Part shown: positions 15,908 through 19,906 of the stretch, piece after piece
How positions within the stretch are numbered: the stretch's first letter is position 1
Layout of the letters: every line of letters begins with the position of its first letter
Assembly (NCBI GenBank): GCA_041736785.1
Contig: JBGSSZ010000674.1
Span: 1-41,319 of the forward strand
Direction of reading: 5' to 3'
DNA from: Limnoglobus sp.
GTDB lineage: Bacteria; Planctomycetota; Planctomycetia; Gemmatales; Gemmataceae
Length of the DNA stretch: 41,319 nt
Translations under genes and position numbers: made by a program
The notes under the pieces: model-generated
The model's input: the letters and a program-made list of their open reading frames with translations, nothing else
What the model was told of the DNA's origin: nothing
Databases searched by the model: none

Positions 15908-18900
15908 GGTATGAAGACGAAAGCGAAGGCGAAGAAGAAAGCGATCGCCTCAGGAGTTGTGGGGCGCATCACGCATCTCGAAGTGACGGGTGCCAGCCAG
16001 CACAATTTGAAGAATGTCTCGACGAAGCTGCCGCGGGACAAGATGACCGTCTTCTGTGGGCCATCGGGTTCGGGCAAGTCGTCATTGGCGATGGACACGA
16101 TCTACGCCGAGGGGCAGCGGCGGTATGTCGAGAGTCTGTCGAGCTACGCCCGACAGTTCCTGGGGCAGGTGCAGAAGCCGCGAGTGGAGCAGATCACCGG
16201 TTTGTCACCGGCGGTGGCGATCGAGCAGAAGACGACCAGTCGCAGCCCGCGGAGCACGGTCGGCACCATCACGGAGATCTACGACTACCTGCGGATTCTC
16301 TACGCTCGACTCGGCAAACGCTGGTGCCCGAAATGCCAGATCCCCATCGGCACCCAGACCTCCGACGAGATCATCGAGACGATCCTCGACTATCCCGAAA
16401 GCACGAAGCTCTATCTTCTCGCGCCGATTGAGCGTCGCGGACAAGAGAAATACGAGGCGATCTTCGACGAGATCCGCCGGTCGGGGTTCATCCGCGTGCG
16501 CATCGATGGCAAATCGCACAATCTCGACGATGTCCCGGCGATCGATCACAAGCGCAAACACAAGGTCGAGGTCGTCGTCGATCGCAATGTGATCCGGGCC
16601 GGCAATCGCACCCGCATCGCAGAGGCCGTGGAGCAGGCTCTCGAACTCGGCAAGGGCGAAATGAGCGTCGCGTTTGTGGAAACGGAGCGTGAGGAGCCGG
16701 AGTGGAAGGTCGAGAAGTTTTCGCGTCACCTGGCCTGCTCACAGTGCGGGACCAGCTACGAGCCGCTGAACCCGCACAACTACAGCTTCAACAGCCCGCT
16801 TGGCTGGTGTAAAAGCTGCGAAGGCCTGGGCGTGCAAAAGGGGGCGGATGTCAATCTGCTGATCGGCGACGCAACGAAGAGCCTGCGTGAGGGTGCGATC
16901 ATTGCCTGGCCAAGTCTGGTGAAAGAGAGCCCCTGGTTGCCGTTTGCCGAGGCGATCGCGCGGAACGGTGGTTTCTCGCTCGACACGCCATCCGGGAAGC
17001 TTGAGCCGTCGCAGCAGAGGACAGTACTCCACGGCACGGGCGAAGCGTGGCTGGTCGTTGGCAACAAAAGCGGCGTGAGCTTTCAATACAAGGGATTGTT
17101 CCCCGCGGTGGATGAAGCCTCGCGTGTGAGCTACGTTTGTCGTGCTCGTCTGGAGCATCTTACGGGTGAGATCCCCTGCCCCACCTGTCATGGCTCACGA
17201 CTGCGGAAGGATGCCGCCGCGACGCGATTCGCTGATCGCACTCTCGGCGACGTCTGCGGTATTCCGCTCGGCGACGCTCATTCGCACATCACAGCACTCA
17301 AGCTCAGTAAGCGCGATCGTCAGATCGCCGGGGAGGTGCTGCGTGAGGTGATGAATCGCCTGCAGTTTCTCGTCGATGTCGGTCTCGAATATCTCACGCT
17401 CGACCGAGCCGGCCCTACGCTCAGTGGCGGCGAAGCCCAGCGCATCCGACTCGCATCGCAGATCGGCAGCGGACTGACCGGCGTGCTCTACGTCCTCGAT
17501 GAGCCAACCATCGGCTTGCATCCCCGCGACAATGCCCGCCTGCTGCGAGCCTTGAAGAACCTTCGCGATCTCGGCAATACCATGGTGCTCGTAGAACACG
17601 ATCGCGAAGTGATTGCGGCTGCGGATCATCTGGTGGATTTCGGGCCCGGCGCCGGCGATCAGGGAGGCACAATCACCGCGTCGGGAACCTTGAAGACGGT
17701 TTCAAACTCAGAACAATCGCTGACGGGGAAATATCTCTCTGGCCGCGCGGCGATCGCGGTGCCATCCAATCGGCGGATTGAAACAAAGGAAGCAGGAAGA
17801 AGGAAGCAGAAAGCAGTGAAGATCGATACGCCGAAGGAAATTTCGGACTTCTTCCTGCTTCCTTCTGACTCCTTCCTTTCCGTGTTCGGAGCCCGGCAGC
17901 ACAATCTCAAGAATGTCGACCTGCACCTCCCGCTCAGCACGCTCATCGCGATCACGGGCGTCAGCGGTTCGGGTAAATCCTCGCTGGTGCACGAAGTGCT
18001 CTATAACACGCTGGCCCGGCGGCTTAACCGAGCCAGCACCAAGGGAGCGGCACACGACGAGATCCGCGGACTGGACAAGATCGACAAAATCATTCGCGTC
18101 GATCAGGATCCGCTCGGCAACTCGCCCAGCAGCAACCCGGCCACCTATACGGGCGTGTTCGATCTCATCCGCGAACTCTTCGCCCGTTTGCCCGAGAGCA
18201 AGGTCCGCGGCTACGCTCCCCGCCGCTTCAGCTTCAATCAGAAGGGTGGCCGCTGCGAAGCCTGCGAGGGGATGGGCCAGAAGAAAATCGAGATGCACTT
18301 CCTGCCGGATGTCTGGGTCGAATGCGACACCTGCCGCGGGGCCCGCTTCAGCCCGGAGACCCTGGCGGTGCAGTATCGCGGCAAGACGATCAGCGATGTG
18401 CTCAATCTGCGGATCAGCGAAGCGATGGAATTGTTCGGCAACATCCCGAAAATCCGCGTCGTGCTGCAGACGCTCGCGGATGTCGGCCTCGGTTACATGG
18501 CTCTGGGACAGCCGGCACCGACGATGTCGGGCGGCGAAGCGCAGCGCGTGAAGCTCGCGGCCGAACTGGCACGGCCATCAACAGGTCGCACGCTTTATCT
18601 CCTCGATGAACCAACGACCGGACTGCACTTCGACGATGTTAAGAAGTTGCTCGACGTGCTGCAGCGACTGGTCGATCTCGGTAACACGGTGATCGTCGTC
18701 GAACACAATGTCGATGTGATCAAGAGCGCGGATTGGCTGGTGGACCTCGGCCCCGAAGCGGGCAGCGGTGGCGGCCGGATTGTGGCCCAGGGCACGCCTG
18801 AGGTGGTCGCGGAACAGTTCGCCGAGCAATCGCACACGGCGCGGATTCTCAAGGAGGTCCTCGCGGCGGGACCGCGGAGGCTGCGGGAGATCTACGACGC

Positions 18901-19906
18901 GAAGAAAGCCCTGGCGAAGGCCGTGGCCGGCGTGGACATTGCCGACGTAGGTGCGGAGATGAAACTGCCGTGGGAAGCGGATGGCCAGAAATGGCACACG
19001 CAGGATCGCATCACCACGCACGGCCTGCCCTGCAAGTGGGATGGGCAGGCACTGGCCGATCTGGAGGCGGCGATTCACGAACTCGGTCAATTCTCGGAAA
19101 CGAACTGGAATCACCGCAGCGTAGTTGAGATTGCGGCTCTAAAGAAGTCGCATGGCTGGTTTTTGCACGCTGCGACCAGCCACCCGGCGTATCTGAAATT
19201 GATCTTCCGCGTCGGTCGCAACTTCACCAAAGAAGCGACACTCAGCGCCCAATTGAATCTGAAACCGCTCAGCGACACACCCGGGCTCGAAGGCTATTCG
19301 CGCGATCATCGCGTGGAGGTGCAGAATCCGCGTGGGCCGTGGCAGTGGATCGTGATCACGATCACCAAGCGCGAAGAGGTCAACGACGCGAAGTTCCAGT
19401 CATTTTTGAAAGACGCGATTGCGTCGTTTCATGCCCAACTTGGCAAACTGGGCACGGACGTGGGCAATCTGATGCCCTGGAAGATCGACGGCGAAAAGTG
19501 GCACCTGTCCGAGAAAGGCTTCCCGCCGGGCAAGGGCGTCAAATGGGATCGCAGCTTGCTGCCCGCGATGCTGAAGCTCATGGCGAGCGTGGATGCAGAT
19601 CTGGATATCCGCTGGGACAGCCGCGATGCCCTGCTCTTCAAGCTGCCCGGCTGCACCAAAAGCTGGAGCCGCTGGAAGACGAAAGAAGCAAAGGCGCTCG
19701 AGTGCCGGTTTGTGGGCGAACCGGGGCAGTTCAACCTGGCTCGCGTGGAGAAGTTCGGCACGGAGCCTGCGATTGAAGCGGACCGTGGCGAGAATGGCGA
19801 CGTGCTGACGCTGCGATTCACTGCGCTCAGTCAGTTGCACAGTGTGGAACTGACGAAGCTGCTGAAAGAGCATGCTGCCGGGTTTCGACGGCACTTCAAA
19901 AGTTAG
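13028..19906 (+). CDS. uvrA: Giant tandem UvrA-UvrA fusion protein with a novel C-terminal extension (2,292 aa from ATG 13028)
   Basis: Two complete UvrA-like modules lie in one frame. There are four Walker A motifs ([36 protein letters not shown]), four signature motifs (LSGGEAQR / MSGGEAQR) and four Walker B motifs (LYILDEP, LYILDEP, LYVLDEP, LYLLDEP). Every CxxC zinc module is duplicated. Start chosen at [19 protein letters not shown], the canonical UvrA N-terminus. Confidence 0.9.
15031..15093. repeat. 16-nt inverted repeat (15 of 16 match, 31-nt loop) inside UvrA module 1 coding sequence
   Basis: gaattcggaacgcgga (15031-15046) versus the reverse complement of tccgcgtgccgaattc (15078-15093). 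It encodes a divergent, roughly 12-aa-longer replacement of the loop before the conserved IDKLIDIDQ motif ([22 protein letters not shown]). Confidence 0.7.
15962..18862 (+). other. UvrA module 2 (about 967 aa)
   Basis: It runs from [41 protein letters not shown] to ..[24 protein letters not shown]. It also retains a UvrB-binding-like segment ([29 protein letters not shown]). Confidence 0.85.
17786..17864. repeat. Perfect 17-nt inverted repeat (45-nt spacer) forming an in-frame insertion in UvrA module 2
   Basis: aaggaagcaggaagaag (17786-17802) is the exact reverse complement of cttcttcctgcttcctt (17848-17864). An inner 5-bp hairpin ccgaa/ttcgg lies at 17831-17846. The arms are built from GGAAGCAG-like purine-rich units. 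It encodes about 27 extra residues ([27 protein letters not shown]) that are absent at the equivalent site of module 1. Confidence 0.8.
18959..19903 (+). repeat. Protein-level tandem duplication within the C-terminal extension (repeat A 18959-19468, repeat B 19469-19903)
   Basis: Repeat A begins [40 protein letters not shown]. Repeat B begins [40 protein letters not shown]. Both end in ..(I/L)T(I/L)..F-type strands followed by an amphipathic helix ([12 protein letters not shown] / [12 protein letters not shown]). Confidence 0.7.

Follow-up and report, generated by a model that had tools for sequence, protein, structure and literature searches.

A tandem alpha/beta module at the C-terminus of a planctomycete single-chain double UvrA

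The DNA analysed here, 41,319 nt from Limnoglobus sp. (assembly GCA_041736785.1, contig JBGSSZ010000674.1, positions 1 to 41,319 of the forward strand; hereafter the window), carries a long uvrA gene whose product contains two UvrA modules in one chain and ends in a C-terminal extension, which is the subject of this analysis. The extension had been picked out from the letters of the sequence alone (the original prediction) as an unrecognised, internally duplicated addition to the UvrA fusion. A stop-free open reading frame (ORF) spans nt 12938 to 19906 on the forward strand; read from the GTG at 12938, it encodes 2322 residues, and because the UvrA equivalog profile opens at residue 33 of that reading, the ATG at 13028 is the likely start. 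The features of the locus are collected in Table 1.

The NCBIfam profile PRK00349 (NF001503) matches the window protein in two full-length stretches with a total of 2656 bits (cut-off 1147), TIGR00630 matches it twice with 2581 bits, and the Pfam domains UvrA_inter and UvrA_DNA-bind are each found twice, one of each per module. These doubled matches indicate that the protein joins two complete class-I UvrA modules head to tail. The modules share 49% identity, and the Lys/Ala-rich linker between them holds no remnant of the C-terminal unit. A second kind of double UvrA, PRK00635, which we take to be the chlamydial UvrA, likewise joins tandem UvrA modules in one chain and likewise occurs in bacteria of the Planctomycetes-Verrucomicrobia-Chlamydiae (PVC) group. 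However, against its profile (NF001885) the window protein scores only 1385 bits, compared to a cut-off of 3054, with a best stretch limited to profile positions 5 to 970, and the 1809 positions of this profile leave no room for an additional C-terminal module. Mahajan et al. (2021; PMC8567305) have already reported that planctomycete UvrA consists of two uvrA genes fused into one polypeptide, and the window protein is this same fused protein. No mention of a C-terminal module of ~330 residues was found in their paper, and no description of it was found in the other literature searched.

Table 1. Coordinates of the double uvrA gene, its parts and the neighbouring genes in the window.
Feature	Position (nt)	Strand	Remarks
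Whole gene, single-chain double UvrA with C-terminal extension	13028..19906	+	2292 aa from ATG 13028, the likely start
UvrA module 1, complete class-I, with UvrB-interaction and insertion DNA-binding domains	13034..15898	+	PRK00349 at residues 33-989 of the GTG reading; Pfam
Inter-module linker	15899..15964	+	Lys/Ala-rich, 22 residues
UvrA module 2 including canonical C-terminal tail	15965..18910	+	alignment to PDB UvrA stops at '...DAKKA'
Spacer	18911..18952	+	14 residues, low model confidence, conserved GD.DI..VG element
Unit A	18953..19453	+	predicted: two short helices with PW..DG..WH motif, then alpha-beta-beta-beta-alpha-beta-beta-alpha core
Unit A motif	18968..19000	+	11 residues
Unit B	19454..19903	+	diverged duplicate of unit A, same predicted topology
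Unit B motif	19475..19504	+	10 residues
ECF-type sigma factor	12259-12858	-	Pfam Sigma70_r2, Sigma70_r4_2, Sigma70_ECF; divergent from uvrA
404-aa ORF	11051-12265	-	no Pfam match; follows the sigma factor gene with a 7-nt overlap
832-aa ORF	19903-22401	-	no Pfam match; signal-peptide-like N-terminus MNRVIAVIVLSIGALTAAAAG; convergent on uvrA
VIT-VWA protein	8541-10949	-	
Pyruvate carboxylase	23018-26515	-	
DUF1573 protein	26597-27583	-	

Solved UvrA structures end soon after the second ATP-binding domain, whereas the window protein does not. In particular, canonical UvrA (PDB 2r6f and 3ux8) aligns up to nt 18910, beyond which the window protein has 331 more residues, and the truly extra part therefore begins at ~nt 18911. 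The original prediction, which placed an extension of ~345 residues at nt 18863, was right that unrecognised residues follow UvrA and set the border too early. The first 30 residues of the extension have AlphaFold2 confidences (predicted local distance difference test, pLDDT) of 57 to 62, and because of these values of ~60 the spacer and the canonical tail together are predicted to form a flexible tether of ~30 residues. The tether is acidic in most homologs (a median isoelectric point of 4.8, as against 8.9 for unit A and 9.1 for unit B), and its positions D23, V29 and G30 are each at least 90% conserved.

The remainder of the extension divides into two units that match each other by sequence, by profile and by predicted fold. 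BLASTP of half A against half B yields an E-value of 4e-7 over the first 66 residues, and HHalign of the A and B profiles (90 homologs) yields a probability of 98.3-98.8% with E = 2e-14 to 4.5e-16 over 145-150 columns, an alignment that covers the full length of both units. AlphaFold2 models the A+B pair, using a 60-sequence alignment, with a mean pLDDT of 91.1 and a predicted template modelling score (pTM) of 0.65; unit A alone reaches a pLDDT of 94.0 and a pTM of 0.89. The predicted order of secondary structure elements is identical in both units, with two short helices preceding the core given in Table 1, though unit B is without a ~15-residue loop that unit A has between its middle helix and strand 4. 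Alignments and models therefore agree with the proposed internal duplication of one ~150-170-residue unit, and indicate full-length homology between A and B.

In every unit, conservation is strongest at the opening. The motif first described as PW-x-x-DG-x-KWH does open both units, 1-2 codons away from the coordinates originally given for it; its conserved core, however, is P-W-x3-G-x2-W-H, which more than 80% of all units compared share together with a G, a W and an L further on, while the Lys preceding WH is not kept. A structural role for this opening, for example as a cap packing on the sheet, is equally compatible with its conservation as a binding surface would be. Unit A is the better conserved copy, and it is the A-type unit that occurs alone in single-unit relatives.

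Searches for known relatives of the extension bore out its unrecognised status in the libraries tried. Neither Pfam nor NCBIfam matches the 347 residues that start at nt 18863 at E ≤ 1, the extension has no match in PADLOC, and a sequence profile search of the PDB with the extension matched the canonical UvrA tail only. Foldseek searches of the PDB (with the A+B pair and with unit A alone) and of BFVD (with unit A alone) returned nothing at E < 1e-3, and the BFVD matches are all uncharacterised phage proteins with scores similar to those of the PDB neighbours. Two groups of structures come nearest. The best single-domain matches for unit A are class-I type-III-secretion chaperones, with Foldseek probabilities of 0.84-0.91 and template modelling (TM) scores of 0.3-0.46; across the searches, Spa15, SycH, SycT, SycE and SpcS have probabilities of 0.7-0.9, TM scores of 0.3-0.5 and E ≥ 0.02. 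Moreover, the C-terminal 'double-wing' domain of the T4 protein MotA (1kaf, 5jlt) is matched with a probability of 0.82-0.97, a TM score of 0.50-0.55 relative to MotA and E = 0.045-0.3. It resembles the units in size, alpha/beta class and arrangement of strands and helices; however, sequence identity is 6-12%, no Pfam match links the two, and MotA has no counterpart of the PW..G..WH cap. A likeness to LAGLIDADG homing endonucleases, which are single-chain pseudo-dimers, was rejected (I-OnuI-type structures have TM scores of 0.13-0.16 and a root-mean-square deviation of ~23 Å).

The extension is widespread and conserved. A scan with one genome per species found that at least 571 species genomes of GTDB encode a relative of it; the best 80 are almost all from Gemmatales (Fimbriiglobus, Gemmata, Zavarzinella, Urbifossiella), together with contigs labelled Singulisphaera, and named database matches also include Pirellulales and Planctomyces sp. 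SH-PL14. Further, an exhaustive hidden Markov model search of 1.84 billion cluster representatives retrieved 711 proteins at E ≤ 1e-3, of which 244 reach E ≤ 1e-30 and 183 lie between 1e-10 and 1e-3; full-length representatives of 2334 and 2343 aa are among them. For these large searches, protein contexts refer to the best 120-150 matches listed, all of which are UvrA, with the 183 weaker representatives outside that set. Across 46 full-length homologs, identity to the window protein is 70-71% in the UvrA modules and 47.5% in the extension, and 19 positions of the extension are invariant. The extension is clearly under constraint, since this level of identity and these invariant positions point to purifying selection, and it evolves faster than the core. 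The module appears to be specific to Planctomycetota. Planctomycete uvrA genes with the extension are also found on contigs of metagenome-assembled genomes (MAGs) labelled Alcaligenaceae, Bacteroidales or Gemmatimonadales (L006, L008, L018, L029, L044, L052, L069; P0012), and these labels are probably binning or labelling errors in public records.

Relatives with a single unit occur as well. For example, P0278 (2155 aa) has two complete UvrA modules and no more than one unit, for which the unit-A profile gives 151 bits and the unit-B profile 37 bits; its gene lies well inside its contig, with an unrelated gene downstream. Two complete modules with a single unit are likewise seen in P0277, P0209 and P0215, whose assemblies are independent and in two cases are MAGs labelled Phycisphaerae or Phycisphaerales; P0277 and P0209, which fall in one 90% cluster, have identical terminal residues, and the end of P0215 coincides with theirs, just past unit A. 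Many other cluster representatives stop 1-15 residues past unit A, and at locus L084 the UvrA C-terminus is followed by a long low-complexity linker, one unit and a stop, with no unit B in any frame. In single-unit lineages (e.g. P0278 and L084), the PW..G..WH cap is kept, as are R150, the FR pair at 115-116 and the D-T-P-x-F helix start, and other residues stand in place of E89 and H102, neither of which varies in the two-unit clade.

The architecture of two UvrA modules with one unit therefore exists, which is a new result, and it argues against a required stoichiometry of one unit per UvrA module. The suggested 2:2 correspondence is thus no general rule. Moreover, the order module-module-A-B cannot come from one whole-gene duplication, and the existence of a double UvrA with only an A-type unit suggests that unit B arose later, by duplication of such a unit, and has diverged faster. 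Overall, we hold with high confidence that the single-chain double UvrA carries a genuine C-terminal accessory module, made of a ~30-residue tether and an unrecognised alpha/beta domain; the same high confidence, held for this anatomy as a whole, extends to its distribution, in which the tandem pair A-B belongs to Gemmatales, Pirellulales, Planctomycetales and Isosphaerales-type genomes and the single unit to Phycisphaerae-type lineages.

The function tentatively preferred for the module is that of an auxiliary nucleic-acid-binding platform on a flexible tether, a reading favoured because the units are mildly basic, because they have a conserved Lys/Arg face, because the host protein is a DNA-damage sensor and because MotA is among the nearest fold neighbours. 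The double-wing domain of MotA straddles the DNA major groove (PMC6755090). In this proposal, the mildly basic units would offer a beta-sheet face bearing conserved Lys/Arg and aromatic residues. Basic residues recur at alternate strand positions (K/R112 in 92% of homologs, R116 in 99%, R150 and K274 in 100%, K/R316 in 81%), with the aromatics W99, F101 and W160 beside them, and E89, H102, R150 and Q161 of unit A are invariant across the two-unit clade. Swinging on the tether, the units may add DNA contacts beside the damage-sensing core of UvrA, and the possible gain would be the holding of flanking or distorted DNA, or a longer residence on the chromosome. Where both units are present, they would form an intramolecular pseudo-dimer, in which unit A would keep the specific contacts and unit B would be a degenerate partner. 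Sub-threshold matches to the DNA-binding, homeodomain-like helix-turn-helix family HTH_32 (PF13565) in 23 of 60 homologs (18-22 bits, compared to a gathering threshold of 33.7) cover the N-terminal segment of each unit in the same register, from PW..G..WH through the following W and the next helix; they are kept as a weak lead, and the window sequence itself has no such match.

Several observations weigh against a nucleic-acid-binding platform. None of the fold or sequence matches is significant; the Foldseek E-values are all 7e-3 or higher and the TM scores 0.55 or lower, and type-III-secretion chaperones, which bind proteins, are matched about as well as MotA. The family consensus scores 17.8 bits against HTH_32, with no gain over the individual homologs, and in the model the first long helix is followed by a strand instead of a recognition helix, so that no helix-turn-helix is present there. 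Further, the exposure of the Lys/Arg face, which alternates with hydrophobic positions along the beta-strands, is judged from strand periodicity alone, several positions of the basic face are not basic in the window protein, the net charge of a unit is a modest +2 to +4, and E89 and H102 are the residues replaced in single-unit lineages.

The main and close rival is that the module serves partner docking or oligomerisation, with the units acting as adaptors of the secretion-chaperone type that bind an extended peptide or a partner protein; this is judged only somewhat less likely than the platform, and the candidate partners would include UvrB, UvrC, Mfd, RNA polymerase, SSB, a planctomycete-specific factor or a second single-chain UvrA. 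The best single-domain fold matches of unit A are consistent with it, since Spa15, SycH, SycE, SycT and CesT share the alpha-beta-beta-beta-alpha-beta-beta-alpha topology; moreover, a flexible tether is typical of recruitment modules, and the conservation is largely aromatic and hydrophobic, as in an interface. Class-I type-III-secretion chaperones are small, acidic, free-standing homodimers encoded beside their effector. The units, in contrast, are basic, occur in tandem or singly in one chain and are fused to a repair ATPase. The chaperone matches are also not significant, and no Pfam chaperone family is found on the window extension (E ≤ 1) or among 60 homologs (E ≤ 5). No candidate partner emerges from the neighbourhood either, where the conserved neighbours, a sigma factor of the extracytoplasmic function (ECF) type and an 832-aa protein, are probably ordinary synteny.

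It is improbable that the module is instead an intramolecular element that docks back on the UvrA core, stabilising the pseudo-dimer or gating ATPase or DNA access until damage is recognised. Conserved tether residues (R8, D23, V29 and G30) suggest contact with something, the acidic tether and the basic units could pair electrostatically, and all homologs examined have the module on a fused double UvrA, with no case of it by itself. However, the PRK00635 double UvrA, whose profile has no room for such a module, implies that a fused dimer needs none, and the pTM of 0.65 for the pair model is uninformative on docking to the core. An enzymatic role, or a pocket for a ligand or lesion in unit A (e.g. 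for the processing or flipping of damaged bases) with unit B inactive, is more doubtful still. It would account for the invariant polar residues that unit A has and unit B lacks (E89, H102, T105, R150 and Q161, plus H45), and McrB-N, a member of the double-wing fold class, flips out 5-methylcytosine (PMC3424535). Against this stand the replacement of E89 and H102 in P0278 and L084, the lack of a match to any catalytic family or motif, and the absence of McrB-N and YjbR from the Foldseek matches listed.

The last alternative, that a separate gene was joined to uvrA by a frameshift or a misassembly, is excluded, because the GC content at third codon positions runs unbroken across the junction (0.749 in the extension and 0.768 in the UvrA core, in the same frame) and because 46 of 80 related loci can be read in the same frame for more than 2250 residues without a stop and with the motif included; the full-length representatives cited above also speak against it, and the practical chance of such an artefact is close to nil. 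The original placement of the extension within the UvrA polypeptide therefore stands. What could be said for an artefact is that some database entries of 290-425 aa, on long contigs, resemble stand-alone proteins. The entries followed up are split or truncated uvrA genes. For P0101 and P0083, a UvrA fragment is found immediately upstream on the same strand, in assemblies prone to errors or frameshifts; the sequences of P0134, P0163 and P0126 begin inside UvrA; P0246 is a piece of a two-unit protein broken by a frameshift; and further entries start either with the C-terminal sequence of UvrA or some way into unit A. In all homologs whose context or sequence was checked, the module lies at the end of uvrA, and no stand-alone gene or fusion to another protein was found among the homologs examined.

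Four records from these searches deserve a separate description. P0126 (WP_075091369.1, from the 8.4-Mb record of Planctomyces sp. SH-PL14) is annotated as a UvrA of 1096 aa that begins in the middle of module 2, and a split gene, a frameshift or a wrongly assigned start may explain this. In a lineage further removed (P0164/P0272), locus L083 (3465-11304) has UvrA module 1 split over two genes, where a 652-aa gene encodes the N-terminal half of module 1 and, after a gap of ~580 nt, a 1767-aa gene encodes its second half, module 2 and units A and B; this split may be real rather than a sequencing error, because comparable lengths (1750 and 1767 aa) are seen in two assemblies made independently. 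No plasmid or phage copy of the extension was found by tblastn against plasmids and phages, and IMG/VR yielded a single match, L084, which is a uvrA 3' end. The L084 record (UViG_3300048591_001610, 1-6062) is catalogued as viral and holds the 3' end of a host-type single-unit uvrA; none of the five neighbouring ORFs tested matches a PHROGs family, no tRNA gene was found, and the record may be a host fragment or a prophage border.

The neighbourhood of the gene is that of a typical planctomycete chromosome. Upstream of uvrA, the sigma factor gene recurs in 32 related loci and the 404-aa ORF, which could encode an anti-sigma partner, in 19. Downstream, the 3' ends of uvrA and the 832-aa ORF overlap by 4 nt, and an ORF with 40-49% identity to the latter is found at the same position in 18 related loci. 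A pyruvate carboxylase gene, with 69-77% identity, is near uvrA in 10 related loci.

As far as shown, the finding is not categorically new biology; the extension is a new, lineage-wide variant of a known repair protein, drawn from a domain family absent from the libraries tried. Few DNA-damage sensors have been studied as thoroughly as UvrA, whose domain map is regarded as complete. An unusual single-chain UvrA dimer found across a bacterial phylum bears one or two well-folded domains without recognisable relatives. Were the domain to bind DNA or recruit a partner, it would provide a new way to tune the damage search or the hand-over in nucleotide excision repair, and a deletable handle on repair in organisms with a condensed nucleoid. 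A bolder proposal, which we regard as rather unlikely, is that the module is a new kind of DNA-repair accessory domain that alters the targeting of nucleotide excision repair in Planctomycetota, either as an extra sensor of DNA structure or damage or as an anchor of UvrABC to the condensed nucleoid or to a lineage-specific structure. Anchoring would fit the observation that all UvrABCD subunits of Tuwongella immobilis are found in the SDS (sodium dodecyl sulfate)-soluble fraction only, unlike those of E. coli (PMC8567305). If this proposal were true, the step from one unit to two would be a functional elaboration within the class Planctomycetia. At the least, the extension represents a new domain family that has been hidden by its annotation as 'excinuclease ABC subunit A', and its one-unit and two-unit forms are a ready-made evolutionary experiment.

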